A stretch of DNA of 64,000 bases from Blastocatellia bacterium UBA7656 (GTDB taxonomy: Bacteria; Acidobacteriota; Blastocatellia; UBA7656). Position numbers and translations under genes: made by a program. The stretch is from positions 4,021 through 68,020 of the forward strand of contig DLHY01000152.1 in the NCBI GenBank assembly GCA_002483445.1, given 5' to 3'. Below, piece by piece: positions 3,099 through 63,148 of this stretch. Below the pieces are notes generated by a model that did not search any database, was not told the origin of the DNA, and saw only the letters and a program-made list of their open reading frames with translations. Position 1 is the first letter of the stretch. Each line of letters begins with the position of its first letter.

Positions 3099-3240
3099 AG
3101 GTTACAGGGAACAGGGGACAGGGGACAGGGAAACGCAATGAAAAAAATGGCTGATAAAAACAAGCTCGATTTCGCCTGAGCGATTACCTACAGCTTTGAT
3201 TCTCTTCATACCTGTAACCTGTTCCCTGTAACCTGTCCCC
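3099..3240. repeat. Large inverted repeat with GGTTACAGGGAACAGG-type tandem arms, flanking a ~75-bp spacer. Candidate terminator/REP-like element between crotonase and DUF971 genes.
   Basis: 3099-3130 caggttacagggaacaggggacaggggacaggg and 3211-3240 cctgtaacctgttccctgtaacctgtcccc are reverse complements (18-bp perfect core). The right arm directly abuts the crotonase stop codon. Confidence 0.6.
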
Positions 3241-4028
3241 TATTTGTGATGCCACTTGGGCGGGCGCTTGGCGATGAATGCCTCTATGCCCTCCACAGGG
3301 TCTTTGCGCGACATCAACTTGTTGAGATAGATATCTTCTGATTTCTTCAGCGCCTGATCGAAATTCAGTCCGGCGCTTTCAACTATCGCGCGTCGGGCCA
3401 TCTCAAGCGCGGTTGCGCTCAACTGTCTCAGCGCGTTTAGAATTTCTTCGCCCTTCGCTTCAAGCTTGTCGTCTTCGACAACGTAATTGACAAGCCCCAG
3501 TCGATTTGCGGTCGCTGCCGACATCAACTCGCCCGTCAGTATCAACTCGCGCGCTTTTTTGTCGCCAATGACTCGGGGCAAAACGACGGCGGCGACGGGC
3601 GGGAACGTGCCTATCTTGATTTCAGGCTGGCCGAATCTGGCGGATTGCCCGGCAACGACTATGTCGGCAAAGGCGGCAAGCTCGCATCCGCCGCCGAGCG
3701 CCGCCCCATGGACGAGCGCGATTACAGGCTTCGAGACGATGTTGAGCGTGCGAAAGATGGAATGAAAGGTGTCGAGCATCTGAAATACCGTCTCCGGCCT
3801 GTGTTCTTCAATCGATACTCCCGCCGAAAAAGCGCGTGTGCCGGAAGCGGCGGCAAACACTATAGCGCACACATCCGGCATCGAAGCGACGCGATTGACC
3901 GCATGGGCGATCTCTTTCATCATCGCGATATTGAACACATTGAGCGGCGCTCGCGCAAAAGACACGCGCGCCACGCGGTCAGTCACAGCAAATTGAATAT
4001 CTTTATACGGGCCAGCCATAGTTCGCAT
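3240..4028 (-). CDS. Enoyl-CoA hydratase/isomerase (crotonase) family protein.
   Basis: Crotonase-fold signatures FAAASGTRAFSAGVSIEE, ALVHGAALGGGCELAAFADIVVA, PEIKIGTFPP. Start ambiguous (4028 or 4019). Confidence 0.85.
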   Translation of the reverse strand: MRTMAGPYKDIQFAVTDRVARVSFARAPLNVFNIAMMKEIAHAVNRVASMPDVCAIVFAAASGTRAFSAGVSIEEHRPETVFQMLDTFHSIFRTLNIVSKPVIALVHGAALGGGCELAAFADIVVAGQSARFGQPEIKIGTFPPVAAVVLPRVIGDKKARELILTGELMSAATANRLGLVNYVVEDDKLEAKGEEILNALRQLSATALEMARRAIVESAGLNFDQALKKSEDIYLNKLMSRKDPVEGIEAFIAKRPPKWHHK

Positions 4029-4105
4029 GATGCACAGCCATCGGCTTTTTGTCATCCGAGCCTGGGAGCGCAAAGACTCGAATTCGCGCATCCCAGGCCG
4101 CCTTT

Positions 4106-4978
4106 TCATTTCGCCTTGAACAGGCTGTCGTCGAGAGGCTCCTTATGAGAAACCTTCTGCACCGAAAGCTCCCAGTCCCGGAGGTCTGCGCGGAACCCTG
4201 ATTCGCGCGCGAGTTGCAACTTGTAGCGGTGCGGGAGCGTCACCCCGTCGACTGCGCGAAAGTCGTCGAACTCTTCGGTGAGTTGTTGACGAGTGGACTG
4301 CATTCTGGACGAATCAGGAGCGTCTGAGCCGAACGTGTTATCGATTTCATATCTGTATTCGGTGCGAAGGTGACGGAACGTCTCGGCGTCGAAGTACAGC
4401 GTGATTTTCAAATCAGCCAGCCCTTTGCGTTTGCGATAATCCACCGCGTGCGCCTGCTGACCCTCGACTTTCTTCAGTCCTTTATACTCCAGCCGGGGCT
4501 GCCTCTCCTCCATTCGCGCGAGCGGCCAGGTCGTCGAAAGCACTCCGCCCACCAATCCTTCCTGAAGCGGCAATTGAAATCGGAAGAAAAAGTCGCTCAG
4601 AGGCTGGCCCTTTTGATACTGAAGGAACCCAGTGGCGACGCGCTCTCCGTCGAATATGATCTCTTCTTCTTTTCTGTCGCGAAGGATTCTCGGCCACAGT
4701 ATGGTGCAGCGGAACTTCGCGCCCGCAGAAATTATTCTCGCGACCGTATCCTCCTGATATGGGCTGCCGGTGCGTATGACGAACTTCAACTGGCCGCTGG
4801 CCATACGGGTTTTGATCGCAGAGCGGGCCTCCGGGCTGCCGATGGATTCGAGATGACGCGAGAGGAGTTCCTCAATCGTCATCTTTTTATCCTGAGCGAG
4901 CGAAGGGTTGATCAAATTCGCGGAGAAACTCAAGGCGATGAAAATCGATGCAAGATAGATGAGAAAGCTTTTGTTCAT
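4106..4978 (-). CDS. Secreted hypothetical protein (signal peptide; possibly LolA/DUF3108-like beta-barrel).
   Basis: MNKSFLIYLASIFIALSFSANLINPSLAQ signal peptide; no catalytic motifs recognised. Confidence 0.5.
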   Translation of the reverse strand: MNKSFLIYLASIFIALSFSANLINPSLAQDKKMTIEELLSRHLESIGSPEARSAIKTRMASGQLKFVIRTGSPYQEDTVARIISAGAKFRCTILWPRILRDRKEEEIIFDGERVATGFLQYQKGQPLSDFFFRFQLPLQEGLVGGVLSTTWPLARMEERQPRLEYKGLKKVEGQQAHAVDYRKRKGLADLKITLYFDAETFRHLRTEYRYEIDNTFGSDAPDSSRMQSTRQQLTEEFDDFRAVDGVTLPHRYKLQLARESGFRADLRDWELSVQKVSHKEPLDDSLFKAK

Positions 4979-5006
4979 GATACTGCCTCCTGGGGTTTGA
5001 GACGCT

Positions 5007-6542
5007 TCACATCCGCGTAATCATATCCGATTCAATCGCGCCCGCAATCGAAGAAGCTTCTTCCATCAGTCTTCGTATCTCGCTTCGTATCTCGCTGGCT
5101 TCTTCTGCGGGAAGCATACTGAGATTGACTCCCACGTTGTAGCAAGCGCCTTTTGTTGCCGCAAGCGCCATCTGCCCGCCTGTGGCTATGTCTGAAAATG
5201 CGTTCTGATTCGCGATCCTCGAAAGCTCGCTCAGATACTTTAACACTTCAACTGCGCGACGTGCCGTCTCCATCGGCGCGCCTGCCGCCCTGCGCCCTGC
5301 CGCTTCTATCCTGAGATTACGCTCCGCCTTCTGCTCCTCCGTCTCTTTCGGCAGGCGGTAGGCTTCCATCACTGCCTCGAAGCTCGCCGCATCTTCAGCG
5401 ATCAAAGCGCGCAACCTCCCGCCTATGCGCTCAAGCTCCGACGCGATCTCTTTTACTCGCGGCTCCACATCGGCGTACTTCTTTTTGCCAACGGTGAGAT
5501 TGCAAACCATTCGACCGAGCGAAGCGGCAAGCGCGCCCGAATGCGCCGCGACGCTGCCTCCTCCGGGCGTGGGCGTGTTTGCCGCGACAAGCTCGCTGAA
5601 CGTTCCTGTGCTATCTGCAAGATTATCTTCCGCAGTTTCCGCGGCGGCTTGCAGCCTGTGTTCAAGTATCTGATCCGGGCTGAAGTTCTCAAGCCTGAGA
5701 TAAAAATCCACAGCAGCATCGAGGGCGCGCTGAGGGACGAGTCCGACGATCTCTGATCCGACTATTGCCACGCCATAACGTTCGGCTTCGCGGCGGATCA
5801 TTTCGAAAGCGCGAAACAGGGGCGTTCCCTCGTAGTTGACCATGTTCATCGAGACCTGAACTATACGGCGATCTTTCAATTCGAATCCTAAAGCTTTCAC
5901 GTAACGAAGCCCGCCGGTCTGATGGCGCACGGCGCGAGCGATTCGGTGTGCAATCTCTATGTCAGATGTTGCGAGGTTCACGTTATAGGCGATGAGCGGC
6001 GGGCGCGCGCCGACGGCTGTAATTCCCGCCGTCGGATGAAGGCGGGCCTCTCCTAAGTCGGGCAGTCGCGCAGGGTTCGAAGCTATCTCGTCGCGTATGC
6101 CTTCGAACTGCCCTTTGCGCAACGCGGCGAGGTTTTCTCTTTCGGGCCGCGCGGCCGCTTTTTCATAAAGGTAAACCGGGATGCCGAGTTCTTTCCACAT
6201 CCTTTCGCCGCACTCTCGCGCAAGACGGACGCAATCATCCATAGTCACGCCCGCGATAGGAACGAAGGGGATGACATCGGTTGCGCCCATGCGCGGATGC
6301 TCGCCCTTGTGATGATTGAGGTCGATTAACGCGGCGGCTTTGCGCGCGGCAGCCAGCGCGGCATCGACTACTCGTTCGGGCGCGGCGACGAAGGTGATGA
6401 CTGAGCGGTTATGATCCGGGTCGGATTCGCGGTCTAACAGCACCGCGCCGGGGGTGGATCGTATGGCCGCGACTATCTCATCGATGACTTCAGCGCGACG
6501 GCCTTCGCTGAAGTTCGGTATGCATTCGACTATGTTTCGCAT
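5007..6542 (-). CDS. ftcD: Glutamate formimidoyltransferase fused to formiminotetrahydrofolate cyclodeaminase (FtcD-like, histidine degradation).
   Basis: N-terminus MRNIVECIPNFSEGRRAEVIDEIV...VITFVAAPE...HPRMGATDVIPFVP is the formiminotransferase domain; C-terminal ~200 aa (TFSELVAANTPTPGGGSVAAHSGALAASLGRMVCNLT) is the cyclodeaminase domain. Confidence 0.85.
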   Translation of the reverse strand: MRNIVECIPNFSEGRRAEVIDEIVAAIRSTPGAVLLDRESDPDHNRSVITFVAAPERVVDAALAAARKAAALIDLNHHKGEHPRMGATDVIPFVPIAGVTMDDCVRLARECGERMWKELGIPVYLYEKAAARPERENLAALRKGQFEGIRDEIASNPARLPDLGEARLHPTAGITAVGARPPLIAYNVNLATSDIEIAHRIARAVRHQTGGLRYVKALGFELKDRRIVQVSMNMVNYEGTPLFRAFEMIRREAERYGVAIVGSEIVGLVPQRALDAAVDFYLRLENFSPDQILEHRLQAAAETAEDNLADSTGTFSELVAANTPTPGGGSVAAHSGALAASLGRMVCNLTVGKKKYADVEPRVKEIASELERIGGRLRALIAEDAASFEAVMEAYRLPKETEEQKAERNLRIEAAGRRAAGAPMETARRAVEVLKYLSELSRIANQNAFSDIATGGQMALAATKGACYNVGVNLSMLPAEEASEIRSEIRRLMEEASSIAGAIESDMITRM

Positions 6543-6711
6543 CCCTTTTGGAAGTGAATCTCCGTCTCTTCAAGTTTGCCTGCAAAGAAAGACTTTGTAG
6601 CTCAAAAGCGGGCTGGGGCGCAATGCGTAAACGACGCGCTCAAAACAAATCTTTCAGCGTGCGGAAGATCGGTGATATCGATCCGCGCCTTGCGCCCCGA
6701 TTCCCCCCTCT

Positions 6712-6739
6712 TTGACGCCGCAGCCTCGACGGGTATAAG
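6712..6739 (+). promoter_or_regulatory. Candidate sigma70-type promoter (TTGACG-16 nt-TATAAG) for downstream secreted-protein gene.
   Basis: ttgacg at 6712-6717 and tataag at 6734-6739 (16-nt spacer). AGGAGA SD at 6761-6766 and TTG start at 6773 follow. Confidence 0.4.
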
Positions 6740-6772
6740 TTGTTTCAAGCTTGTGGCAAAGGAGAGCCGGCT

Positions 6773-7294
6773 TTGAAAAAAGTTTTTATTCTGGTTCTTG
6801 CCTGCATACTTATTTCAATAACGACTGCGGCTTCGCAGACCCGCAAACGCGGCAGCGCGAAACGCCCCGCGCCCTCGACAACTTTCGCAGAGAAACAACA
6901 GGCCGAAATTCGGGCTGGCTGCGTGAGAATCGCCGTGCAGATCAAAGCCCTGACGCAGTTCCTCTATCTGTTGGGGGGCATATCGAAAACCATCGAATCT
7001 GCCGAGCAGGCCACCCGCAATCGCGAGCCTTCTCAGCTTACTCCTGAACAGATCGAGCAAACCAAAGTCAAAATCAAAGAGAGCGTCAGAAATGTTCGCG
7101 TGGGTCTCGATGAGCTTGAGCGAGGGTTTCGGTTCAATCCGGCGCTGACAACCTTCTACCCATACCTGTCAGGAGTGGCCGTCATTGGCAAGACAGCCGA
7201 GAATCAGGCTGCGGGCAACAACTTCGATGAGTCAGGCAGATCGCTCATCCGCGCTGTCAATAAACTGACAGACGCTCTGGTTGCGATGCGATGA
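6773..7294 (+). CDS. Secreted hypothetical protein.
   Basis: In-frame TTG start with SD; product begins (M)KKVFILVLACILISITTAASQ (signal peptide). The ORF-track ATG at 6740 lies upstream of the predicted promoter -10. Confidence 0.45.
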   Translation: MKKVFILVLACILISITTAASQTRKRGSAKRPAPSTTFAEKQQAEIRAGCVRIAVQIKALTQFLYLLGGISKTIESAEQATRNREPSQLTPEQIEQTKVKIKESVRNVRVGLDELERGFRFNPALTTFYPYLSGVAVIGKTAENQAAGNNFDESGRSLIRAVNKLTDALVAMR

Positions 7295-7358
7295 AGCGAT
7301 CAGGTCGCAAAAACAGGGCAGGGACAGCGCCATATCGACGGCCTGTCCCTGCCCTGTT

Positions 7359-9167
7359 TTACTGAACTGTGATGACGCGCAATCGGTAGTTGGCGTTTCC
7401 TTCGAACGCGCTAATCCCGATGATGTAATCGCCCGGAGGGAGCGAAAATGGCATCGAGATTTGCTCCTTTCCCGTAAGCCCCAGGCTTGCGCCTATCAGA
7501 TTCGGGTCGTTGAGATTCGATTTCTTCTTGTTGACGCTCGACAGGAACAGATAAAGATCGAGATCGCCCGCCCCCGATGTCGCATCGAGGAATATGTAGA
7601 CTCTGGTCGAGCTTGTGACAGTGAACTTGTACAGGTCTTCGATCTTGTCGGTAAATCCTCCGCCGAGATCCATCTTCAGAACTGAAGAATCCGTCGAGTC
7701 GGCACCTCCCGTCACGTCGGCGAGAATGCCGATGCGGTCAGCCTTGTTCGTTTTGTGATTCGGCTCCGATTCAGCGACGGCCACGAGCGGCGCGGTGGAA
7801 AACCCGTTGAGGATGATATCGATGCCTGTCGTCACCTGGCCCGCCGCGACCGCTACAGGTTCGAAGTCGGTCGCCGCATCCGAAGCCGCGCCCGATTCGC
7901 GCGGCCCGCTGTAGAACTCCTGAACCGGCAGTATGTACTGCTCGTTCAGTTGGCCGATTGAAGAGCCTCCTGTAGCGTCGGGGTTGATCTGCTGAATCTC
8001 CACGAGGTAATTACCCGGCGGCAATCCCTGAATCCGATAGCGCCCCTCGCCGAAGTTGACGCTCGTCACCGCGCTCACGGCTGTCGCTAGTGGGTCGGTC
8101 ACGGTCTGCGGCTGAGGAGTTTCAGGCACTCCGAAAGCATCAAGCAGGGGCGGGACGGTGAAAGCAGGCGTACCGGCAGCCGGAGGGTATGCGCCCTGAT
8201 CTATGCGGCGAGCGACGACGTTGATTCCCGGCACGGGTATATCGCCCGATGAAGCGCCTACTATCACGCGCCCTTCTATCGTTCCGGTATTGGTCGCAAA
8301 ATCCGGCGTGGGATAGAGAGCCGAAAGCGCGTTCTGGGTGTCCAGATCGAGGGTGGCTATGAAGAATCCCGAATCGGGAAACTGAGCGCCGAGTTGTGAC
8401 CCTGCGGGCGCGTCGAATATGAACGGGTAGACCGTCTCAGTGAAAGGCCCGAAAAGATCATACGCCTGCGCCTGAGTGAAACCGGGCGGCAGGGGTTGGA
8501 GAGAAGAGCGGGCGAACCGATCCGCGAAATGGCCGTTGATCTGCGAGTGATCGAGCGGCCCGGCGAAGTGGCCGAACTCGTGCGTGAAGACTCCAAGCAG
8601 CGAAGTGGTTGAGAGCGAAGCGGGAGGAGAGAGAGACCGCCCGTTGATGACCACCGCGCCTTCGCGCAGGGTGTTCGACGGATCATCGATCTGCAAAAAA
8701 GTGAAGAACCCTAAAACGAGCGGGTCTCTGGTTATCGTGCCATCGCTGTCGAATATGATGGGGTTTTGAAAGGTCGGAGTGCTAGGGCTGAGGAACCTGC
8801 CGACATTCGAGCCGTTCACATCGACCTCCATTCCGGTGGTCGGGTCTATTATCCGTCCGGCGTTCACGAATTCTATGCTCGCGAACGGGATATCGGTGTA
8901 GAGGTTGAAAATTCGATCAACAATCGCCGTCGCATCCGCTTCCGAAAGCGTGCCGAGCGTTCCCTTGTCGACGCGATAAAGGACGCGGCCCGCCGCATCG
9001 ACGGTGGCTGAATTCAAAGCTCCGCCTCTCACTTCGCTCCTCGCCCAAAGCGTGGGCTGCCCGTCAAGAAGAAGCAGCGGCCCTCCCGCTTTGACCGCAG
9101 GTATTATGATCGCGGCCAGAGCGATGAGAATCGCAGGCAGTAGAATTTTTACGCGAAGATATTTCAT
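7359..9167 (-). CDS. Secreted zinc metalloprotease (HExxHxxGxxD zincin, M6/M7-like) with C-terminal pre-peptidase (PPC) domain.
   Basis: Signal peptide MKYLRVKILLPAILIALAAIII; zincin motif THEFGHFAGPLDH; C-terminal ~100 aa (KFTVTSSTRVYIFLD...GDLDLYLF...YRLRV) resembles a PPC/bacterial pre-peptidase domain. Confidence 0.7.
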   Translation of the reverse strand: MKYLRVKILLPAILIALAAIIIPAVKAGGPLLLLDGQPTLWARSEVRGGALNSATVDAAGRVLYRVDKGTLGTLSEADATAIVDRIFNLYTDIPFASIEFVNAGRIIDPTTGMEVDVNGSNVGRFLSPSTPTFQNPIIFDSDGTITRDPLVLGFFTFLQIDDPSNTLREGAVVINGRSLSPPASLSTTSLLGVFTHEFGHFAGPLDHSQINGHFADRFARSSLQPLPPGFTQAQAYDLFGPFTETVYPFIFDAPAGSQLGAQFPDSGFFIATLDLDTQNALSALYPTPDFATNTGTIEGRVIVGASSGDIPVPGINVVARRIDQGAYPPAAGTPAFTVPPLLDAFGVPETPQPQTVTDPLATAVSAVTSVNFGEGRYRIQGLPPGNYLVEIQQINPDATGGSSIGQLNEQYILPVQEFYSGPRESGAASDAATDFEPVAVAAGQVTTGIDIILNGFSTAPLVAVAESEPNHKTNKADRIGILADVTGGADSTDSSVLKMDLGGGFTDKIEDLYKFTVTSSTRVYIFLDATSGAGDLDLYLFLSSVNKKKSNLNDPNLIGASLGLTGKEQISMPFSLPPGDYIIGISAFEGNANYRLRVITVQ

Positions 9168-9931
9168 TTAAGCAGCCCTCCTTTCTGCCCGCCCGTTATG
9201 ACGCCTTTTTCGCCTCCGTGAGCCGAGACGATCTGTTCCACGATCTCGACGAGAGAATCGAGCGGCAAAGCGCCGCGCCTTCGCGTGACGCTTTCAACAG
9301 CCTGTATGGAGAGCGGCTGATCGCGGTCGGGAAAGACCACGCGGGCATCTTCGGGTTTCACTCCCAATCCCGTGTAGGGAGCGGTGAATAGTCCGAGGTT
9401 GTTTATGGAATTCTGCGCAAGCTCCTGACCCGAAGGCATACGCGTGATGAAGAACGCTCCCTGATAAAGCCCCACAGGAGAAGTGCCTCGCGCAGAGTCG
9501 GCGTTGAGAAACAGCATAACGCGGTCGCCCTCTTTGTAAGGGTTCATTCCATGCAGGAAAGTTTTTGTCGAAACCGCGCGCCCGTGCATAGTCAGCCTTC
9601 CCCCTTTGGCCGGACGCGACGCATGGCCGAGATGTTTGACTGTCATCTGCTTCGACACACGGCCTTTGATGGCGCGCTCTATTTCAAAAGTGTAAAGAGT
9701 GACTGGCAATATGCCCCCGGCAATCTCTTCTTCCGTCTCTACGATCGACAGGCAGCGACCGACGAAGACTCGATCAGCCATCACGGACATCTCTTCGAGA
9801 TTGACTCTTCGCACCAGATGATGAGCGTCTCCGATAAGGGAGGATGCCAGTCCATAGAGCGCGATGATCGTAATTGATAGCACCGCCTTGATACGATGTG
9901 TGTGCATAAAAACTCCTTGAGTGAATCTCAA
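9164..9931 (-). CDS. Secreted hypothetical protein, translationally coupled to the metalloprotease gene (4-bp overlap).
   Basis: Signal peptide (KAVLSITIIALYGLASSLIG); no recognisable domain. Confidence 0.5.
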   Translation of the reverse strand: MRFTQGVFMHTHRIKAVLSITIIALYGLASSLIGDAHHLVRRVNLEEMSVMADRVFVGRCLSIVETEEEIAGGILPVTLYTFEIERAIKGRVSKQMTVKHLGHASRPAKGGRLTMHGRAVSTKTFLHGMNPYKEGDRVMLFLNADSARGTSPVGLYQGAFFITRMPSGQELAQNSINNLGLFTAPYTGLGVKPEDARVVFPDRDQPLSIQAVESVTRRRGALPLDSLVEIVEQIVSAHGGEKGVITGGQKGGLLK

Positions 9932-9956
9932 ACTTTAAATCTCAAATCCGAGATCG

Positions 9957-10934
9957 TTATTGTAGCAACTGCGAAGCGCCGCGCCCTCCGACGGCAACTC
10001 CTCGCGCGGGAGTCGCAAGATCAATAGCCGACAGATCGCGCGATGAAACCGTGTTTATTGTAACCCACCCTCGCCCGCCATCGCGCGATTCGAGGGTAAC
10101 GCCATGAGCGCCGACCGCCCAGAAAACATCTCCCGATGCGGCAATTGCGTTGATCGCTTCAGTCGTCCCCGACTCGACTCTGCTCCAGTTTGCGCCGTCT
10201 TCGCTGCGAAGGACGGTTCCCGCTTCGCCCACCGCCGCCATAATTCCCGAAGGCGAAAGGGCGAGTCCGAAGAGCGCGCGCGATGTTCCCCCGCTTTGTT
10301 TCATCCACGTCTGACCGCCGTCCGCGGTGCCGATTATGATTCCGTCTTCGCCGACCGCCCAGCCGCGATCGTGGGTGGCGAAGCGAATCGCCCAGAAGCT
10401 TTCAACGCGATCAGTCTCGATCTGTTCCCACGTCTCGCCGCCGTCCGTCGTGCGAAGCATCAGACCTCCCGCGCCTGCCGCGCCGCCTGCGGCCCATCCT
10501 TTATTCTCATCGATGAAAAAGATCGAGTTGATGACCTCGCCCTGACGTTCGACTCTCTGAGCTTTCCATGTCCTCCCTCCGTCATCAGTTCGTTCGATGC
10601 GTCCGGCATAGCCTGCGACCCATCCGCGCTGAGGGCTTATGAAAAAAATCGAAGCCAGCACTTCGGGCGTCGTGGCTATGGGCTGCCAGCTTGCGCCGCC
10701 GTCTGAGGTGGCATAGATCGCGCCGCCTTTTCCCATCGGGTCGATGTCGCCTGCGGCCCAGCCTGTTTTATCGTCGATTAGATCGACAGCCAGAAGATCG
10801 AGCTTTCCAATGCTCGACCCGGCGACCCATCGGGCTGCGTCCGCTGAGGGAGAGATTTCCTTCGCGCAGGAGACAAACGCGAGCAGCAGGAAAATGACGA
10901 ACAGTTTCGATCCGTTCAAAATCTGATGATTCAC
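9957..10934 (-). CDS. Ycf48-like / BNR-repeat beta-propeller protein (photosystem II stability/assembly factor-like).
   Basis: Repeated SxDGGxTW Asp-box motifs (TSDGGASW, TDDGGRTW, TTDGGETW, TADGGQTW, SRDGGRGW); N-terminal lipoprotein-like signal (LLLAFVSCAK). Confidence 0.75.
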   Translation of the reverse strand: MNHQILNGSKLFVIFLLLAFVSCAKEISPSADAARWVAGSSIGKLDLLAVDLIDDKTGWAAGDIDPMGKGGAIYATSDGGASWQPIATTPEVLASIFFISPQRGWVAGYAGRIERTDDGGRTWKAQRVERQGEVINSIFFIDENKGWAAGGAAGAGGLMLRTTDGGETWEQIETDRVESFWAIRFATHDRGWAVGEDGIIIGTADGGQTWMKQSGGTSRALFGLALSPSGIMAAVGEAGTVLRSEDGANWSRVESGTTEAINAIAASGDVFWAVGAHGVTLESRDGGRGWVTINTVSSRDLSAIDLATPARGVAVGGRGASQLLQ

Positions 10935-11020
10935 AATAAGTTGTGACCGACGACCTCGGAAAGTTTATCACAGGCGCGTCAGTCTGTCTTGTTTGCTACG
11001 CGCCTCGCAAGAAATTTGTA

Positions 11021-11150
<130 letters not shown>

Positions 11151-11174
11151 TGCTGTTGGACTCTCGAATCAATA

Positions 11175-14000: not shown

Positions 14001-14056
14001 GGGGAAGGGGCGACACGCGATTCATGAAACTACGCCGCATCAGGCGCGTCAACAGA

Positions 14057-14120
14057 AATGCGGAATTGCGAATGCGGAATGCGGAATAAGGGAATCTTTC
14101 TTCATTCCGCACTCCGCATT
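14057..14120. repeat. Microsatellite hairpin (GCGGAAT repeats vs ATTCCGC repeats) between wecC-like start and heptose-kinase stop.
   Basis: aatgcggaattgcgaatgcggaatgcggaat ... cattccgcactccgcatt; the right arm overlaps the stop codon at 14119. Confidence 0.6.
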
Positions 14121-15102: not shown

Positions 15103-15105
15103 GTT

Positions 15106-16134: not shown

Positions 16135-16301
16135 TCTTCAATCACGGCCTCGTCGATAAGCATAACGGGGATGTCGTCTCGAATGGGATAAACCCGTCTG
16201 CACTGGGGGCATTTCAGCGCGCTTCTATCCGGCTTGATCTCAACCTTCACCTTGCACGCCGGACAGGCAAGAATTTCGAGCAGTCTTTCGCTTACCGGCA
16301 A
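16131..16301 (-). CDS. Trm112-like (DUF343) small protein, 56 aa; not in the supplied ORF track (<60 aa).
   Basis: Reverse-strand translation from TTG at 16301 (AGGAGG SD 6 nt upstream): (M)PVSERLLEILACPACKVKVEIKPDRSALKCPQCRRVYPIRDDIPVMLIDEAVIEE. CPxCK...CxxC...YPI.D.IP.ML.DEA is the Trm112 signature. Stop overlaps the heptosyltransferase GTG (GTGA). Confidence 0.6.
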   Translation of the reverse strand: MPVSERLLEILACPACKVKVEIKPDRSALKCPQCRRVYPIRDDIPVMLIDEAVIEE

Positions 16302-16321: not shown

Positions 16322-16349
16322 CAGTTTTCAGTTTTCAGTTTTCAGTTTT
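16322..16349. repeat. CAGTTTT x4 microsatellite (same unit as the hairpin at 57425-57553).
   Basis: cagttttcagttttcagttttcagtttt read directly. Confidence 0.5.
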
Positions 16350-16593
16350 CAATTCTTCATCATTTCAGGGCGTCGTTGAAAACGGCCTGAGCGATTTCTC
16401 AGAAAACGTACAGCAGGCTGCCAGCCTGCGGGTTCCCCGTTTTCATGCTTTCAGTTCATGCGCAATCTAACAGATTGCGCCATAGGGAATCCTTTCTTGA
16501 AGCGGAGAAGTCTAGCACTCGGTCAGCGAGGCGGTCAATTTTCGCAGCCGTTGAAAGCCCGGTATCTGCGTGATAATCTTTCAACACTCCATA

Positions 16594-27186: not shown

Positions 27187-27190
27187 GGAA

Positions 27191-27272
27191 GGCAAAAGTA
27201 AAAAGGTAAAAGGCAAAAGTGGGAAAGACCGCTCGATATTTTTGCCTTTTTACTTTTGCCTTTTTACTTTTC
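27191..27272 (+). terminator. Microsatellite hairpin (GGCAAAAGTAAAAAG repeats vs CTTTTTACTTTTGCC repeats) immediately after the beta-helix gene stop. Candidate terminator/REP-like element.
   Basis: ggcaaaagtaaaaaggtaaaaggcaaaagt ... ttttgcctttttacttttgcctttttactttt, read directly. Confidence 0.6.
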
Positions 27273-27323
27273 CATTGATGTTGGCTACTATCTTTCCTTC
27301 CAAAACATGCCTGTGGAGGGAAC

Positions 27324-29509: not shown

Positions 29510-29528
29510 AGCATCTCTCCTTCGGAGA

Positions 29529-29602
29529 GATGTTAGAGGTTAGATGCTGGATGTTAGTGAGAACGAGTAGCTACTAACATCTAACATCTGATATCTAACA
29601 TC
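29529..29602. repeat. Microsatellite hairpin (GATGTTAG-type repeats vs CTAACATC repeats) between sdhB stop and the downstream gene start.
   Basis: gatgttagaggttagatgctggatgttagt ... actaacatctaacatctgatatctaacatc; the right arm abuts the sdhB stop (29602-29604). Confidence 0.6.
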
Positions 29603-30342
29603 TACTTTTTGAAAATGCGCACGAGCTTGACGAGCGGGTCATAAAACTCGCTGACCACGCGCTCCTTGAGCGGGATGATCGCGTTGTCGGTTATCGTTAT
29701 TTCTTCAGGGCAAACTTTCGTGCAGCACTTGGTGATGTTGCAATAACCTATGCCGTCCGTATCTTTCAATTCCGCCAGACGATCCTCCACGTCGAGCGGG
29801 TTCATCTCCAGAGCCGCCACATAAACGAAGAAGCGCGGGCCGATGAATTCCTTATGCAGATGATGCTCGCGCAAAACATGACAGACATCCTGACAGAGAA
29901 AACATTCTATGCACTTGCGAAATTCCTGCACCCGGTCGATGTCCTTTTGAGACATGCGCCAGGTGCCGTCTTCTGCATCAGGCGGACGTGGCTTGAATCG
30001 CTTGATCTTCTTTTTCACTTCATAGTTCCACGACACATCCGTGATGAGGTCTTTGACGAGAGGAAATGCCTTGAGCGGTTCGACTCTCACGGGCTTATCA
30101 GTCGGAAGGCTGTTGAGCCGCGTCATGCACATCAATCGAGGAAGTCCGTTTATCTCCGCCGAACACGAGCCGCACTTGCCCGCTTTGCAGTTCCACCGAC
30201 AGGCAAGATCAGGCGCTTCGTCGGCCTGTATTCGGCGCACAGCGTCAAGCACTACCATGCCTTCGGCAACTTCTGTGGTGTAATCGACGAACTGGCCGCT
30301 TTCGGCGTCGCCTCGCCATATTCTGAATGTCGCCTTTGCCAT
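29602..30342 (-). CDS. sdhB: Succinate dehydrogenase/fumarate reductase iron-sulfur subunit.
   Basis: 2Fe-2S motif CRWNCKAGKCGSCSAEINGLPRLMC and 4Fe-4S/3Fe-4S cysteine clusters (CIECFLCQDVC, CNITKCCTKVCP). Confidence 0.9.
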   Translation of the reverse strand: MAKATFRIWRGDAESGQFVDYTTEVAEGMVVLDAVRRIQADEAPDLACRWNCKAGKCGSCSAEINGLPRLMCMTRLNSLPTDKPVRVEPLKAFPLVKDLITDVSWNYEVKKKIKRFKPRPPDAEDGTWRMSQKDIDRVQEFRKCIECFLCQDVCHVLREHHLHKEFIGPRFFVYVAALEMNPLDVEDRLAELKDTDGIGYCNITKCCTKVCPEEITITDNAIIPLKERVVSEFYDPLVKLVRIFKK

Positions 30343-32953: not shown

Positions 32954-33192
32954 GAGAGTGTAGGTGGAACCTCCGAATCACAAATTGCGAATTGCGACAT
33001 AAAAGAAAAATGATTGCGTTGGTTTCTGTATGAATAAAACCATGGAGGTTCAATCTCATCATGACTTGGCCGAACGTTTATCATGCCCGTTGATTTCGAG
33101 TCAAGACAGGTGAGGCTTTAATCGCATTTCGGCAACGGTCAAACTAGAGCCATTTAATTTTCAGAGGCAGGATCAGAATAGCCCGCAGATGA

Positions 33193-33258
33193 CGCGGATC
33201 AGGCGGATTTACGCTGATCTGATCCGTGTTCGTCCGCCAAATCCGCTTGATCCGCGTT
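33193..33258. repeat. 19-bp inverted repeat (ACGCGGATCAGGCGGATTT / AAATCCGCTTGATCCGCGT) around a 28-bp spacer, directly downstream of the truncated retropepsin-like ORF.
   Basis: Read directly; one mismatch between arms. Confidence 0.5.
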
Positions 33259-33745: not shown

Positions 33746-33760
33746 ACACTGACAAGCAAC

Positions 33761-33820
33761 AAGTGATGAGTGACAAGTTGAACAGACTCGTCACTCATCA
33801 CTTTGAACTCATCACTTCTT
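33761..33820. repeat. Hairpin (AAGTGATGAGTGAC / GTCACTCATCACTT, 14-bp stem) plus CATCACT repeats, at the stop of the downstream secreted-protein gene.
   Basis: aagtgatgagtgacaagttgaacagactcgtcactcatcactt read directly. Confidence 0.55.
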
Positions 33821-37896: not shown

Positions 37897-38539
37897 GATC
37901 ACCATACTCATAGCAGACGATCATCCCATATTTCGCAAAGGGCTTCGACAGATCATCGAATCGGGGAGCGGAATGAATGTCGTGGCCGAAGCCGACGACG
38001 GGGAAGCGTGTTATGAAAAAGCCCGCGAACTGAAGCCCGACGTAATCATACTCGATGTGAACATGCCCAAAATGGACGGCTTCGAAGTCGCGCGCAAGCT
38101 TCACGATTCGAACCTGTCGGTCGAAGTCGTTTTCCTGACTATGTACAAAGACGAAGAGATGTTCAACGAAGCGCTCGACCTCGGAGCCAGAGGGTATGTT
38201 TTGAAATCGAGTGCGCTGACCGACATCGTCGACTGCGTGCGCGCGGTCTCTTCAGGTCAGCATTACATCAGCCCCACGCTTTCCGACTTCCTCCTCAATC
38301 GCAGAAACCGTGCCGCGAGTTTCGTCAGGAGCAAGCCTTCGATAGGCGATCTCACGCCAACGGAGTTGCGCATACTGAGGCTGATTGCCGAATCAAAAAC
38401 GAGCAAGGAAATCGCCGCCGAACTTTTCATCAGCTACCGCACAGTCGAAAATCACCGCGCAAACATCTGCCAGAAACTCGACCTCCACGGCTCGAATGCG
38501 CTGGTCAAATTTGCAATTGAACATAAATCGGCCCTTTAG
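37886..38539 (+). CDS. Response regulator, NarL/FixJ (LuxR-type HTH) family.
   Basis: ITILIADDHPIFRKGL...DVIILDVNMPKMDG receiver domain; C-terminal LTPTELRILRLIAESKTSKEIAAELFISYRTVENHRANICQKL LuxR HTH. 11-bp overlap with the kinase gene. Confidence 0.9.
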   Translation: MMTEITILIADDHPIFRKGLRQIIESGSGMNVVAEADDGEACYEKARELKPDVIILDVNMPKMDGFEVARKLHDSNLSVEVVFLTMYKDEEMFNEALDLGARGYVLKSSALTDIVDCVRAVSSGQHYISPTLSDFLLNRRNRAASFVRSKPSIGDLTPTELRILRLIAESKTSKEIAAELFISYRTVENHRANICQKLDLHGSNALVKFAIEHKSAL

Positions 38540-38594
38540 TTTTCAGTTGAGCGGTGACGGCATCTGAAAACTGGAAACTGGAAACTGAAAACTG
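38538..38594 (+). terminator. Microsatellite hairpin (AGTTTTCAGTT / GAAAACTGGAAACTGGAAACTGAAAACTG) right after the response-regulator stop.
   Basis: Read directly; GAAAACTG unit shared with the locus at 57425-57553. Confidence 0.55.
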
Positions 38595-48991: not shown

Positions 48992-49095
48992 GGAGAGTGG
49001 GAGAGTGGGAGAATGGGAGATGAAGAGTCTTCGCTCCCACTCCCACACTCCCACACCCCCACACTCTTTCTTCCCCCACTCCCACTCTCCCATTC
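48992..49095. repeat. Microsatellite hairpin: GGGAGAGT/GGGAGAAT repeats vs ACTCCCAC/ACTCTCCC repeats, then a T-run.
   Basis: ggagagtgggagagtgggagaatgggagatg ... ctcccactcccacactcccacacccccacactc ... cccactcccactctcccattcttttg. Confidence 0.6.
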
Positions 49096-49225
49096 TTTTG
49101 TCAGCCCGAAAAGGAAATCGGCGCTGATTCTCAGGCTTCCGTGATGGCTGTCACTGATAAGAAGCGCAGCTTTATGTTACTACCTTTTTGTGCAGTGTGG
49201 GTCATAAGATAATAAGGAGACGAAT

Positions 49226-57424: not shown

Positions 57425-57553
57425 CAGTTTTCAGTTTTCAGTTTTCAGTTTTCAGTTTTTCATCACTTCGTTTCAGGTCATCGCTCTTGACGACCTGAAT
57501 AACTTTTCATCTGAGAAATGAAACTGCTTCTGAAAACTGAAAACTGAAAACTC
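57425..57553. repeat. Microsatellite hairpin: CAGTTTT x4 ... GAAAACT x3 around a ~75-nt spacer, between the beta-lactamase-like stop and the permease start.
   Basis: cagttttcagttttcagttttcagttttt ... gaaaactgaaaactgaaaactc read directly. Confidence 0.65.
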
Positions 57554-60887: not shown

Positions 60888-61033
60888 AGAAGCTATTGAT
60901 CGAATAATAAATAAAGCTGAAACCTTTTTGCAGCCAGTGCGCCTTAACATCGTCGCTTGCCGGAAGCTGACCGCTTGACTTCCCAGCCGCGCGCTTTCAA
61001 TATGTGCGACGCAACAAACAAGGGAGGTGCTTT

Positions 61034-63094
61034 ATGCGATTCTCGACTCGTGTGCTTGCGATTTGTTTCATTATCGCTTTGATAGCGATGCCCGCCGCTG
61101 CGCAGGATAAAAAGAAACTCGCAGCCGCGGACGCTTTCAATCTCGAATTCGTCTCCGATCCGCAAATCTCGCCCGACGGAAGACGGATCATCTACGTCCG
61201 CCAGTTCACCGATATCATGTCGGATCGCAACTACTCGAACCTATGGATAGTCAACTTCGACGGCTCGGACAATCGCCCGCTCACTACCGGGCTTCGCGGT
61301 GACTCTTCTCCTCGTTGGTCGCCCGACGGCGCACGGATCATTTATATATCCGATCAGGACGGCGCGGCTCAAATCTATCAGCGATGGATGGACACCGGGC
61401 AGACGGCAAGGCTGACTAACCTGCAATTCCCGCCTGCGGGCATTAGCTTTTCGCCCGATGGAAAACATATTGCTTTTACCTCGTTCGTACCCGAGAGACC
61501 GCCGCAGGTTGCAAACATCCCCGCGCCTCCTCCGGGTGCGAAGTGGGCTGACCCGGCGATGGTCATAGATAAACTGGTTTATCGATTCAACGGGCCGGGT
61601 TATCTCAAACCGGGATACACGCATCTGTTCGTCCTTCCTTCGGAGGGCGGCACGCCGCGCCAGATTTCGAGCGGCAACTTTCAGCACGGAGGCGCGCCCT
61701 TTCGCGCAAGCGAGGCCGTCTGGACGCCCGACGGCAAATATCTGTTGATGTCTGCCAATCGCCGCGCGGATTATGAACTCGAACCGCTCGATTCGGAGGT
61801 GTATGAATTCTCGGTCGCCGATGGATCAGTTCGCGCTCTTACAAATCGTCGCGGGCCTGACAATGCGCCCGCTGTTTCGCCTGATGGAAAGCTCATAGCT
61901 TACACGGGATTCGATGACCGTTATCAGGGCTATCAGGTCGCGCGGCTCTATGTGATGAACCGCGACGGAAGCGGCTCGCGTATGCTGTCGGGCGATTTTG
62001 ATCGCGATGTGGGCTTTGTGCGCTGGTCTGCGGATGGAAGCGGCGTCTTTTTCCTCTACGACGATCAGGGAAACACAAAGATCGGTTTCTATTCGCTCGA
62101 CGGAAAGATGAAACAACTCGCCGCAAACGCCGGAGGAACGGGAAGCGCCTACGGAGGCGGATCGTTTTCGATAAGCAAGTCGGGAGCTTTCGCATTCACT
62201 TACTCGCGCCCATACATACCTTCGGATATTGCAGTCGCCTCGGCGGCCAATCCATCAGCGAAAGTCATCACTGCCGTCAACGATGATCTTCTCACGGCGC
62301 GAAGGCTGGGCGAAGTGGAAGAAATCTGGTACGAGTCTTCTTTCGACAAACGAAAGATTCATGGCTGGATCATCAAGCCTCCCGACTTCGACCCCGCGAA
62401 GAAGTATCCGCTCGTACTTGAAATTCACGGCGGGCCGTTTGCCAACTACGGCGACCGCTTCGATTTCGAAAAGCAGGTCTGGGCCGCCAAAGGCTACATC
62501 GTCCTCTACACCAATCCGCGAGGCTCGACGAGCTATGGCGGTGAGTTCGGCAACCTCATCCATCATGCCTATCCCGGAAATGATTTCTACGATCTCAACT
62601 CAGGCGTAGATGCTGTGATAGCCAGAGGTTACATCGACACGGACAACCTGATGGTGACGGGCGGAAGCGGCGGCGGAGTGTTGACCTGCTGGATGATAGG
62701 CCGCTCGCCGCGCTTTCGCGCAGCCGTGACTGTCTATCCCGTGATCAACTGGTACAGCTTCGTGCTGACGGCTGACATCTCTGCTTTCGTATCGAAGTAC
62801 TGGTTTCCGGGTCTCCCGTGGGATAACGTCGAACATTACGAAAAGCGATCCCTGCTTTCCGTCGTCAAAAACGTGAAGACGCCGACTATGGTTTTGACGG
62901 GAGAAGAAGACTATCGCACGCCGATGTCGGAATCGGAGCAGTACTTTCAGGCGTTGAAATTGTTGAACGTCGAATCGGTGCTGGTAAGAGTTCCGGGCGA
63001 ACCTCACGGAATTCGCCGAAGGCCGAGCCATTGGATGGCCAAGATCGAATACATCGGCGGGTGGTTCGACAAGCACAAGAAGAACAATCCATGA
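61034..63094 (+). CDS. S9 family serine peptidase (prolyl oligopeptidase / acylaminoacyl-peptidase type) with N-terminal TolB-like beta-propeller, secreted.
   Basis: ATG 61034 with AGGGAGG SD; signal peptide. Propeller repeats (SPDGRRIIY, SPDGARIIY, SPDGKHIAF). Catalytic triad context GGSGGG (Ser), EEDYRTP (Asp), GEPHG (His). Confidence 0.85.
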   Translation: MRFSTRVLAICFIIALIAMPAAAQDKKKLAAADAFNLEFVSDPQISPDGRRIIYVRQFTDIMSDRNYSNLWIVNFDGSDNRPLTTGLRGDSSPRWSPDGARIIYISDQDGAAQIYQRWMDTGQTARLTNLQFPPAGISFSPDGKHIAFTSFVPERPPQVANIPAPPPGAKWADPAMVIDKLVYRFNGPGYLKPGYTHLFVLPSEGGTPRQISSGNFQHGGAPFRASEAVWTPDGKYLLMSANRRADYELEPLDSEVYEFSVADGSVRALTNRRGPDNAPAVSPDGKLIAYTGFDDRYQGYQVARLYVMNRDGSGSRMLSGDFDRDVGFVRWSADGSGVFFLYDDQGNTKIGFYSLDGKMKQLAANAGGTGSAYGGGSFSISKSGAFAFTYSRPYIPSDIAVASAANPSAKVITAVNDDLLTARRLGEVEEIWYESSFDKRKIHGWIIKPPDFDPAKKYPLVLEIHGGPFANYGDRFDFEKQVWAAKGYIVLYTNPRGSTSYGGEFGNLIHHAYPGNDFYDLNSGVDAVIARGYIDTDNLMVTGGSGGGVLTCWMIGRSPRFRAAVTVYPVINWYSFVLTADISAFVSKYWFPGLPWDNVEHYEKRSLLSVVKNVKTPTMVLTGEEDYRTPMSESEQYFQALKLLNVESVLVRVPGEPHGIRRRPSHWMAKIEYIGGWFDKHKKNNP

Positions 63095-63098
63095 AATA

Positions 63099-63148
63099 GT
63101 CTGGAGTCTGGAGTCTGGAGTCTGGAGTCCAGAGAGTCTGGAGAGTCG
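63099..63148. repeat. CTGGAGT x4 microsatellite followed by a partial complement.
   Basis: tctggagtctggagtctggagtctggagtccagagagtctggagagtc. Confidence 0.5.

Follow-up and report, generated by a model that had tools for sequence, protein, structure and literature searches.

The genome analysed here is that of an uncultured soil or biofilm acidobacterium (Blastocatellia, Acidobacteriota). Where a long stem-loop lies directly 3' of a stop codon in it, the arms are in most cases built from tandemly repeated units of 7-8 bases, which differ rapidly from one close strain to the next. This hairpin pattern is real and lineage-specific. Based on the sequence, we consider it fairly probable that these elements, here named SSR hairpins, are gene-end stem-loops that were reshaped by heptamer slippage and inter-arm exchange and that function as RNA structures at transcript ends. 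The window, i.e. the whole stretch of 64,000 nucleotides that was analysed, was compared with a sister strain (S) that is 94-98% identical to it and with two relatives (T and U) whose identity is only ~80-88%. The individual loci are listed in Table 1.

TRF detected in the window 16 arrays with a period of 7 or 8 and at least three copies. A partner, defined as a reverse complement no more than 150 nt away with at least 2p-2 of 2p bases matching, was found for 11 of them; the controls, reverse-only and complement-only units, gave 0/16 each. An independent scan for close inverted repeats (minimum arm length 16 nt) returned ten in the window, eight with periodic arms (7-9 nt), against a mean of 0.69, a maximum of 3 and no periodic case in 100 Markov-1 simulations of the window. 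The original prediction grouped 12 loci under one architecture with arms complementary on folding. At nine of these, two arrays of 7-8-nt units genuinely face each other in inverted orientation and fold into a long hairpin, but the arms at 11021 are mismatched and pair imperfectly, and the loci at 16322 and 63099 are unpaired, no inverted partner lying within 150 nt of either array (CAGTTTT x4 at 16322-16351; AGTCTGG x6 at 63098-63143). The list was also incomplete, as the hairpin at 7301-7369 had been overlooked. Folding z-scores range from -5.5 to -10.5 at eight mirror-array hairpins (3098, 14057, 27189, 29528, 33192, 33758, 48992 and 57425), and locus C, whose arms have diverged in unit length, folds well only as minus-strand RNA, through G-U pairs. 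The idea that each locus invents a different unit, with no shared sequence, has to be abandoned: CAGTTTT/AAAACTG is present at three window loci (16322, 38538 and 57425), ACAGGnn is found at 3104 and 7310 and again on the same contig just beyond the window, and units such as AATGCGG and AAAAGGC coincide across distant genomes (24 coincidences vs 4.3 +/- 2.0 expected). Heptamers also dominate the arrays of at least three copies in the other fetched loci.

Table 1. Repeat arrays and hairpins of the window, with their setting, folding (dG; z) and counterparts in related genomes
Locus	Position	Strand	Repeat structure	Setting	Folding	Counterparts
A	3098..3244		ACAGGnn heptamer arrays, ~4-5 units/arm, centre 88 nt	Entire 145-nt spacer from ECH stop codon to GBBH-like gene start, both genes minus strand	dG -59 to -61 kcal/mol; z -5.5 to -7.9	S: almost identical
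B	7301..7369		18-27-bp stem AAAACAGGGCAGGGACAG / CTGTCCCTGCCCTGTTTT, ACAGGG units, T-runs both sides	Between convergent genes	dG -45 to -47	S: identical; T: degenerate
C	11022..11141	-	7-mer array CAGGAGT/CAGAAGT x7 beside 8-mer array TCACCTCY x7.5; arms not reverse complements	Flanked by UDP-glucose dehydrogenase and BNR gene	minus (sense) -49.0 kcal/mol, z -3.6; plus -23.6, z -0.9	T: same units, fewer copies; S: ACAGGnn-type hairpin instead
D	14057..14120		AATGCGG units	PfkB stop codon TAA within first unit		T: 3 fewer units in 3' arm, otherwise same; S: unrelated G-rich 8-mer hairpin, different stop codon
E	16322..16351	-	Unpaired; (AAAACTG)x4 on minus = CAGTTTT x4	Divergent (5') region, no hairpin; ends 8 nt upstream of AGGAGG ribosome-binding site of 56-aa Trm112-like ORF (16131-16301, minus; Pfam Trm112p in orthologue)	z ~0	4 copies in window, 6 in S, 0 in T
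F	27189..27276		GGCAAAA/GTAAAAA units, higher-order period 14 nt	Begins 2 nt past PKD-domain gene stop codon	sense -42.0, antisense -29.6	S: 3 SNPs, otherwise conserved
G	29528..29604		AGATGTT units, 4 + 4 copies	Overlaps SdhB stop codon; 18 nt from its end to next start codon		S: same copy numbers, different unit variants, loop swapped (17 nt in S vs 36 nt); U: non-repetitive terminator-like hairpin GCAGGCTGGCAGCCTAC, then T-rich tail
H	33192..33257		19-bp stem, GCGGATYA, period ~8-9 nt	1 nt after stop codon		S: identical
I	33758..33820		GTGAYGA units	Overlaps stop codon of 235-aa gene		S: +1 unit, 15-nt loop is exact reverse complement of window loop; U: stem of single unit
J	38538..38594		AGTTTTCAGTT (1.5 units) vs (CTGAAAA/CTGGAAA)x4.4; asymmetric	Overlaps response-regulator gene stop codon	weak: dG -19.2; z -2.8	
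K	48992..49096		8-mer units GGGAGAGT / CACTCCCA, 3.6 and ~7 units	Begins 5 nt past stop codon; TTTTG after	dG -52 to -56	S: 4 + 4 units, altered loop; U (locus L173): same unit family
L	57425..57552		plus: (CAGTTTT)x5 ... (CTGAAAA)x3.3 around non-repetitive inner hairpin	Entire 143-nt spacer from beta-lactamase stop codon to amino-acid permease ribosome-binding site	dG -52 to -58; z ~-10	Sense (minus) arms: 3 and 5 units in window vs 4 and 4 in S; spacer length constant
M	63098..63188		Unpaired (AGTCTGG)x6 array; separate GC-rich non-repetitive hairpin at 63158-63188	After S9 peptidase stop codon; convergent genes on both sides		

The location of the hairpins is consistent with the proposed transcript-end positions. 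Paired hairpins occupy 11 of the 20 intergenic regions with a gene 3' end on at least one side vs none of the seven divergent regions (Fisher p = 0.02), which comprise 1.6 kb of free DNA in the window. For ten of the 11, the hairpin base and the upstream stop codon either overlap or are at most ~5 nt apart, so that the claim of abutment to stop codons is borne out. Across all fetched loci, a long-ORF stop is found at a distance of 10 nt or less in 27 of 53 periodic hairpins vs 45 of 176 non-periodic inverted repeats. Because a run of at least four U follows the stem in only four of the 11 hairpins (B, D, K and L) and several of the 'loops' are 28-88 nt long, most of these structures are not canonical intrinsic terminators; hairpin B looks like a bidirectional one. 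Of 48 periodic hairpins, 40 have a purine-rich 5' arm (p = 3e-6), and RNA made from either direction consequently ends in a pyrimidine-rich 3' arm, a polarity that would fit easy template release. Sense RNA is more stable than antisense in 14 of 19 cases, a difference that is only suggestive and not statistically secure, since the orthologues among these cases are not independent.

Comparison with related strains revealed presence/absence and unit-copy variation. Between the window and S, copy number differs by 1-3 units at E (16322), I (33758), K (48992) and L (57425), the loops have been replaced at G (29528) and K, and the sites of C and D carry hairpins of a different unit type. The exactly inverted loop of hairpin I implies that the whole hairpin flipped. 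Copy-number change, loop swap and hairpin inversion with respect to S are direct evidence for a local generation mechanism of the kind originally suggested. Moreover, two contigs that encode identical PfkB proteins differ by two copies of a 52-nt higher-order repeat. In T and U, hairpins C, D, I and K are retained with 1-2 units, and the more distant relatives have, at the corresponding sites, hairpins of simpler build or an ordinary one that resembles a terminator; elsewhere, site C harbours a 20-bp non-repetitive hairpin (locus L002) or a different periodic one (L001). As simpler orthologous forms persist in relatives that are ~80-88% identical, the hairpins mark old sites rather than recent inventions. 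Per 100 kb, the window has 12.5 of them and S 16.2, compared with 1.7 for T plus U, 4.7 for other Blastocatellia and 1.1 for other phyla, the density in the species-level clade of the window and S being ~10x higher than in other lineages. Divergence between the window and S amounts to 4-5% in the gene that separates C from D vs 1-1.5% in the flanks, and the switch of unit type at these two sites between 96%-identical strains could be an in-place transformation, an import by recombination or a copy from another locus.

What could have generated hairpins of this kind? In the reading that we favour, the seed would be an ordinary post-stop hairpin, in each arm of which slipped-strand mispairing would duplicate 7-nt units. 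The inverted arms might then exchange sequence, copied or flipped from one to the other by template switching or by recombination across the hairpin, and such exchange would leave the arms roughly complementary while the unit drifts and is homogenised at each locus. Growth would halt at the coding boundary, as a 7-nt unit in the reading frame causes a frameshift. The repeat character would be mostly a mutational by-product and not a functional feature; the putative roles of the RNA structure are bidirectional termination, protection of the 3' end from exonucleases or an intercistronic processing boundary, a function that we infer entirely from sequence. At sites G and C, periodic hairpins stand where relatives have ordinary ones. 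Against this reading, the unit variants of hairpin G are non-compensatory between arms both in the window and in S, and the divergence of the locus C arms into a 7-mer and an 8-mer means that pairing is not strictly kept unit by unit. In addition, purely local drift does not predict that a unit will recur at unrelated loci or in a distant genome.

The hairpins might instead have no function at all: in this lineage, unusually slippage-prone or repair-deficient replication would expand whatever short palindromes and tandem duplications the non-coding DNA contains, and the clustering after stop codons might only reflect that free, non-coding DNA is found there and that terminator palindromes already existed. 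The restriction of the burst to the clade of the window and S, with short versions in T and U, speaks for such a by-product, as do the non-compensatory variants and diverged arms described above, the occurrence of the unpaired arrays E and M, and arrays that reach or include the stop codon as if coding constraint alone limited their growth. The predominance of heptamers points the same way, heptanucleotide repeats being the commonest long SSR class in most surveyed prokaryotic genomes according to a summary of Mrazek 2007 in PMC4679880. We nevertheless regard this explanation as unlikely: same-site hairpins with still complementary arms have been kept down to ~80-88% identity, the divergent intergenic DNA is devoid of them, the purine/pyrimidine polarity requires an additional assumption, and the ordinary hairpins at the same positions in relatives make the underlying site look functional. 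The arrays could alternatively be sequence-specific cis-regulatory elements that act at the DNA level (through a G-quadruplex, a cruciform or a nucleoid or regulatory protein) or in translation control from the 5' UTR, with the inverted arm as masking partner. TAACTGA repeats of Beggiatoaceae, for which translation control in 5' UTRs has been proposed (PMC4679880), are one base away from AAAACTG in the same register, and (AAAACTG)n ends 5-8 nt upstream of the ribosome-binding site at E and L; at least four GGG runs, sufficient to make a quadruplex possible, are present in A, K and the S version of D, and some units are found across phyla. However, most units lack G-runs, most arrays lie away from start codons and a candidate binding protein was not found. 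A specific binding code is also hard to reconcile with copy number, and even unit type, varying at the same gene between near-identical strains, and we judge such a role quite improbable.

The recurrence of units within the genome and in distant ones, well above the expected number of coincidences, would be accounted for if MITE- or REPIN-like copy-paste elements, or ectopic conversion, had spread unit families (ACAGGnn, CAGTTTT, GGGAGTGT, AATGCGG and AAAAGGC) between gene ends. The S hairpins at C and D are of unit families found elsewhere in the window genome: the former has an identical 25-nt stretch in common with a hairpin just outside the window, and the latter shares a GAGTCTTC apex with hairpin K. 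In U, the amidohydrolase gene has a hairpin of the AAAGGCA type on its other side. Spread of this type is nonetheless very improbable in our estimation. The family members have no conserved termini, loops, lengths or target-site duplications, which upholds the earlier view that they are not a classical REP or MITE family, and no transposase or RAYT gene linked to the hairpins was found in the 83 kb available. Orthologous hairpins are vertically inherited and altered gradually by units, and the conserved flank of site C, ACAGCAGG, could have seeded ACAGG units in place. An artefact of short-read metagenome assemblers, to which the breaking of short-read Logan contigs inside arrays might point, has a negligible likelihood, because two assemblies made independently, each from a different sample, show 100% identity as far as the arrays, the orthologous architecture is present in S, T and U, which come from other studies and other assemblers, MAGs of other studies display the architecture as well, and the flanking genes are conserved and in frame. 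The closest known parallel to the gene-end hairpins is provided by the GGGAATC inverted pairs of Xanthomonas, whose repeats form a quadruplex (PMC4692102); the architecture was previously described there, and the SSR hairpins resemble this pattern.

The mirror hairpins of the window are real and lineage-specific, and their evolutionary dynamics are documented in the comparison of closely related strains. TRF found 16 arrays with a period of 7 or 8 and three or more copies, and period 7 accounts for 13 of the 19 window arrays with at least three copies. A reverse-complement partner, lying within 150 nt and comprising at least two units with at most two mismatches, was found for 11 of the 16 arrays; with a reversed-only or a complemented-only unit the same search gave 0 of 16 each. 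An inverted-repeat scan that is blind to tandem repeats (arms of at least 16 nt) recovered ten close inverted repeats, eight of them periodic at 7-9 nt. One hundred Markov-1 simulations of the window yielded a mean of 0.69 inverted repeats and no periodic ones, so the architecture is commoner than chance. All paired arrays are intergenic, and the arrays display the features of long simple sequence repeats (LSSRs): head-to-tail units of 5-11 nt beyond chance expectation, chiefly intergenic, with heptamers commonest. Folding supports the description as mirror hairpins for most of the listed loci: A, B, D, F, G, H, I, K and L (Table) fold at -26 to -61 kcal/mol with z of -5.5 to -10.5, and B (7301-7369) is an addition to that list. 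Four of the listed loci need amendment. The arrays at 16322 (E; fold z about 0) and 63099 (M) had been described as paired and are both unpaired; 38538 (J) is paired, yet weakly and asymmetrically, with 1.5 versus 4.4 units; and 11021 (C) consists of a 7-mer array adjoining an 8-mer array with only imperfect pairing, its RNA folding far better from the minus strand (-49.0) than from the plus strand (-23.6). The idea that every locus carries a different unit does not hold either: CAGTTTT occurs at three loci and ACAGGnn at two window loci, with a further ACAGGnn copy on the same contig 4 kb outside the window. In a metagenome contig of 82,997 bp at ENA (ERZ922866, run SRR747868, "biofilm metagenome"), the window corresponds to positions 5118-69117, with two SNPs over the 15 kb compared. 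An independent second assembly from another run (Logan SRR5322494) contains two stretches that are 100% identical, and its contigs stop inside arrays. The nearest named relatives of several window proteins are MAGs labelled Blastocatellia, Pyrinomonadaceae or Acidobacteriota.

Using the gene calls attached to the contig, every intergenic region was tabulated. With a minimum length of 60 nt, 10 of 17 co-oriented regions contain a paired hairpin, as does one of three convergent regions; the seven divergent regions contain none (Fisher p = 0.02). The earlier statement that most hairpins abut a stop codon is confirmed: in 10 of 11 cases the outermost pairs share bases with the upstream stop codon or are no more than about 5 nt away, and at D, G, J and L the first unit contains or directly abuts the stop. 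The gap from the hairpin to the next start codon ranges from 3 to 238 nt. Across all fetched loci, 27 of 53 periodic hairpins have an ORF of 100 aa or more ending within 10 nt, as against 45 of 176 non-periodic inverted repeats. Of 48 periodic hairpins, 40 have the purine-rich arm on the 5' side (p = 3e-6), and G exceeds C in the 5' arm in 37 of 46; the CAGTTTT family is the main exception to this purine-first order. As an inverted repeat reads alike on both strands, the polarity belongs to the element itself and does not depend on the direction of transcription, and RNA synthesized from either side presents the purine-rich arm first and the pyrimidine-rich arm second. A U-rich stretch 3' of the stem is confined to B, D, K and L. 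Hairpin B, with its GC-rich stem, short loop and U-tract, fits the intrinsic terminator fully and looks like a textbook terminator acting in both directions. On bases 1-20000, a scan for consensus terminators and promoters gave overall counts equal to those of shuffles and flagged no hairpin, because its loop limit of 3-8 nt is exceeded by the hairpin loops. In 14 of 19 cases, among which orthologues are not independent, the sense strand gives the stabler RNA fold. The window contains no structured-RNA match in Rfam 15 at the gathering score, and ARAGORN reported neither tRNA nor tmRNA.

How do these elements change over short evolutionary distances? Close relatives were reached by protein search followed by exact-protein look-ups: a sister strain, S (ENA ERZ21828258, loci L167, L171 and L175), at 94-97.7% nucleotide identity, and two sets of more distant relatives, T (loci L168-170) at about 86% and U (loci L173/174 and L177/178) at about 80-86%. 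Comparison of orthologous spacers, the check for which the original prediction had called, uncovered changes in unit copy number between the window and S at E, I, K and L (Table). Whole units are gained and lost in individual arms, the arms diverge independently (C), loops turn over and a hairpin is inverted: the reverse-complemented loop of I in S marks a flip of this hairpin between its arms. In the spacer that separates the BNR gene from the gene after it, a small heptamer array likewise differs by one unit between the window and S. In T, two contigs with identical PfkB carry a 52-nt higher-order repeat made up of these heptamers, one contig having two more copies than the other. In the deeper comparisons C, D, I and K are present in T and U as one- or two-unit versions, site G in U carries a terminator-like, non-repetitive hairpin, and site C is a plain 20-bp hairpin in comparison locus L002 and a different periodic hairpin in L001, where 42-nt arms are nested in a second purine/pyrimidine repeat.

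Table. Repeat loci of the window and their state in the sister strain S
Locus	Start in window	Window versus S	Relative T
A	3098	few SNPs	
B	7301	identical	
C	11022	wholly different unit types and loop in S	
D	14057	wholly different unit types and loop in S	
E	16322	4 copies (window), 6 copies (S)	without array
F	27189	few SNPs	
G	29528	equal copy numbers, variant units differ; loop 17 against 36 nt	
H	33192	identical	
I	33758	one unit extra; 15-nt loop is the exact reverse complement	
J	38538		
K	48992	units about 7 + 3.6 (window), 4 + 4 (S); loop changed	
L	57425	sense-strand units 3 + 5 (window), 4 + 4 (S); spacer length the same	
M	63098		

At C and D, where S has other unit types, T, though farther from the window than S, retains the window unit types in fewer copies. 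Import by recombination is possible at these two sites, because the UDP-glucose/GDP-mannose dehydrogenase gene between the two sites (11175-13970, minus strand) is 4-5% diverged from S, more than its flanks (1-1.5%), and because its intein form differs. In the window the gene (931 aa) is split by an intein that includes a LAGLIDADG homing-endonuclease domain, in S it has a 623-aa form with the intein splicing domain and no LAGLIDADG match, and in L001 and L002 the intein is absent. The new ACAGG units at C could equally have been seeded in place by the conserved flank ACAGCAGG. The nested hairpin of L001, a 69% relative, lies 3' of UDP-glucose dehydrogenase (5400-5600); its inner stem is (GAAAATTGCAAATT)n, its outer stem pairs irregular GGGAGAA-type purine with CGCCCCT-type pyrimidine repeats, and the 200 nt fold with a dG of about -100 kcal/mol. 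This nesting suggests successive rounds of repeat growth.

The density of periodic hairpins, obtained with one detector for all sets, is 12.5 per 100 kb in the window and 16.2 in S, compared with 1.7 in T and U together, 4.7 in other Blastocatellia-labelled loci, 2.1 in other Acidobacteriota, 1.1 in other phyla and 1.6 in SdhB-neighbourhood metagenome loci. To describe the hairpins as genome-characteristic was therefore fair, and the pattern is that of a burst in one clade on a low, more widespread background. The genome-collection scan by PfkB reached relatives at no more than 69% identity and served for distribution, not for orthologous comparison; the metagenome scan by SdhB returned relatives at 73-81%, of mixed taxonomy and too distant, which were used as a background set.

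Based on these comparisons, the sites are old and behave like gene-end hairpin sites, and the feature specific to the clade is that their stems have turned into microsatellites. We propose that slippage within each arm would add and remove units, and that template switching or recombination between the arms would operate alongside it. Acting together, slippage and arm-to-arm exchange would preserve approximate complementarity of the arms and let the unit drift between loci. Entry of a 7-nt unit into a reading frame would cause a frameshift, a limit that fits arrays ending exactly at stop codons. Quasipalindrome template-switch mutagenesis, as well as inversion between short inverted repeats, has reportedly been described by Ripley and by Lovett in E. 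coli reporters and would account for arm-to-arm copying and for the flip at hairpin I; we know of no description of this mechanism as the generator of a genome-wide class of elements. The putative function is bidirectional termination, 3'-end protection or an intercistronic boundary, as suggested by position, by ordinary hairpins at the same sites in relatives, by absence from divergent regions and, weakly, by sense-strand stability. To our knowledge, heptanucleotide repeats, noticed nearly twenty years ago, are the most over-represented long bacterial microsatellites. The clade offers an unusually clean natural experiment, in which dozens of gene-end hairpins stand at different stages of repeat growth, sister strains record unit gain and loss, arm-to-arm exchange and hairpin inversion, and outgroups retain the plain ancestral hairpin. 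Two questions can be tested in it: how palindromes and microsatellites promote one another, and whether turnover of this kind is tolerated by transcript-end structures or put to use. At a practical level, the arrays break short-read Blastocatellia assemblies at gene boundaries.

A full-text literature search, beyond whose reach most subscription-journal papers lie, returned no account of such hairpins in Acidobacteria. The closest description is that of the inverted GGGAATC pairs of Xanthomonas: X. campestris and X. axonopodis carry 183-186 GGGAATC-type heptamer arrays, among them 70-75 convergent inverted pairs per genome (Rehm et al. 2015, PMC4692102). Those pairs are mostly intergenic, on average 28 nt after the upstream ORF, far from the downstream ORF and rare between divergent ORFs; related species have them at corresponding intergenic sites but with different lengths and sequences, and they place the G-rich arm first on either strand and have no known function (PMC4692102). 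The window hairpins share the architecture, the mostly intergenic location, the proximity to the upstream ORF, the rarity between divergent ORFs, the constancy of site with changing length and sequence among relatives, and the G-rich-first polarity. However, the Xanthomonas unit is essentially one, GGGANTN, and quadruplex-capable (PMC4692102), whereas the window has at least eight unit types in 64 kb, most of them not quadruplex-capable, and no single GGGAATC consensus. The window also belongs to another phylum, Acidobacteriota, nearly all its long intergenic hairpins are of the periodic kind, and inversion, loop replacement and unit-type change between near-identical strains are not reported for Xanthomonas. 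Heptanucleotides dominate the long SSRs with 5-11-nt units in many prokaryotes, for which polymerase slippage has been suggested (Mrazek, Guo and Shah 2007, as summarised in PMC4679880 and PMC4692102). Heptamer predominance, intergenic arrays and sporadic spread across lineages recur here; in these summaries the survey treats arrays singly, and mirror pairing and stop-codon placement fall outside its description. The cyanobacterial STRR repeats of Calothrix PCC 7601 comprise three tandem heptanucleotides (as cited in PMC4692102), and few arrays are paired in Nostoc (PMC4692102). They resemble the window in that several heptamer families form intergenic tandem arrays in one genome, and differ in that pairing is the rule in the window. 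The STRR units CCCCAGT, TTGGTCA and CAACAGT had no match among the TRF consensus units of the window, the nearest being ACAGGGG, whose reverse complement CCCCTGT is one mismatch from CCCCAGT. Direct TAACTGA repeats lie upstream of start codons in Beggiatoaceae, Cyanobacteria and Bacteroidetes, and in Cand. "Maribeggiatoa" the arrays number 169 direct sets and one indirect set (MacGregor 2015, PMC4679880). E and L also stand upstream of a start, the (AAAACTG)n array at each (16322 and 57425) lying 5-8 nt upstream of a ribosome-binding site, and AAAACTG is one base off TAACTGA in the same register; it is nevertheless a different unit, belongs to a family that forms hairpins as well, and stands beside many other unit types.

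REP, BIME, REPIN and MITE elements are likewise short intergenic palindromes located after genes, and have been proposed as terminators or mRNA stabilisers. REPs and REPINs have a conserved palindrome of 20-40 nt with a GTAG or CGTC head and are linked to a RAYT transposase, and MITEs have terminal inverted repeats, target-site duplications and many near-identical copies. These are families of conserved sequence, whereas the window hairpins share a repeat unit at most: loci have no sequence in common beyond the unit, family members are without common termini, loops or lengths, and flanks are not duplicated. We accordingly reject a MITE or REPIN origin, in agreement with the earlier view that this is no classical REP/MITE family. 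G-quadruplex formation was rejected as a general explanation, since G-runs are missing in most units and four GGG runs occur in the window in hairpins A and K only. The units themselves recur more than expected: coincidences across loci and genomes number 24, versus 4.3 +/- 2.0 after shuffling of the unit letters. AATGCGG sits 3' of stop codons in the window, T and comparison locus L075 (50% PfkB identity), and AAAAGGC is found in the window, in U and in two other fetched loci (L078 and L006). This recurrence argues either for limits on which heptamers can prosper or for copying from locus to locus. A more far-reaching reading is that the unit families (AAAACTG, ACAGGnn, GGGAGTGT, AATGCGG and AAAAGGC) would not be slippage accidents but the recognised sequences of a lineage-spanning system, for instance a hairpin-directed enzyme adding or copying 7-nt units symmetrically at gene ends, or RNA-binding factors reading the unit and its copy number as a post-transcriptional code that evolves fast and operates both at transcript ends and in 5' UTRs. 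If true, it would account for the recurrence of heptamers after stops down to 50% PfkB identity and for the strict purine-first polarity. It would parallel the regulatory network proposed, and never shown, for TAACTGA repeats, and we regard it as quite improbable.

Several further features were observed at and near the loci. A 56-aa ORF (16131-16301, minus strand), Trm112/UPF0434-like with a zinc ribbon, separates array E from the heptosyltransferase gene. It has a TTG start and AGGAGG as ribosome-binding site and is below the size of the 100-aa ORF list; in the orthologous loci it is called with Pfam Trm112p. The 5' leader of this Trm112-GT9-PfkB operon contains GCAGGCTGGCAGCCTRCTGTACG with a T-rich tail, a terminator-like element (16413-16429, minus strand; L167 1286-1308), and nearly the same 23-nt sequence occurs in U at an unrelated locus, between SdhB and the next gene (L173 10811-10833). 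Between the MurB and creatininase genes, S has an 88-nt insertion (L175 8322-8423; window 53358-53371) made up of a hairpin (GCGCAAGCTAACAGCTTGCGC) and a second TCGGAGG ribosome-binding motif, and T has a comparable cassette, GAAATTTGAAGCCGCGCAAG...CTTGCGCCA...TTTCAGAGGAGG, upstream of its Trm112 ORF (L168 about 5880-5941). The two may represent a small dispersed hairpin-plus-RBS element. About 560 nt of the window (49097-49641), comprising a 107-aa gene (49226-49549) and its flanks, are missing in S (L175 12152-12230), where K sits directly between the convergent stops of the M28 peptidase gene and a 101-aa gene; the window M28 gene has a different 3' hairpin, GC-rich and non-repetitive.

The window contains 19 copies of the motif ATGAAGA, where 10.2 +/- 3.0 would be expected. 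Four of them lie on the sense strand, exactly at the inner edge of the 5' arm of A (3203-3209, minus), D (14099-14105, minus) and K (49020-49026, plus), and just before array E (16354-16360, minus). At site D the ATG of this motif (GTG in S) opens an ORF whose TGA stop is shared by the window, T and S. Small leader peptides encoded in the loops were considered and rejected, the K ORF being without a start codon in S. In-frame tandem repeats are present in a PKD/beta-helix protein (26210-26717; 252 nt, two copies) and in an FG-GAP/HYR protein (39338-39982; 168 nt, 2.4-2.8 copies); these are domain duplications, unrelated to the heptamer arrays. Outside the window, about 4 kb before its start, a DDE transposase gene (DDE_5/DDE_Tnp_1) lies at the contig end (L165 19019-20089, contig positions 1-1100).
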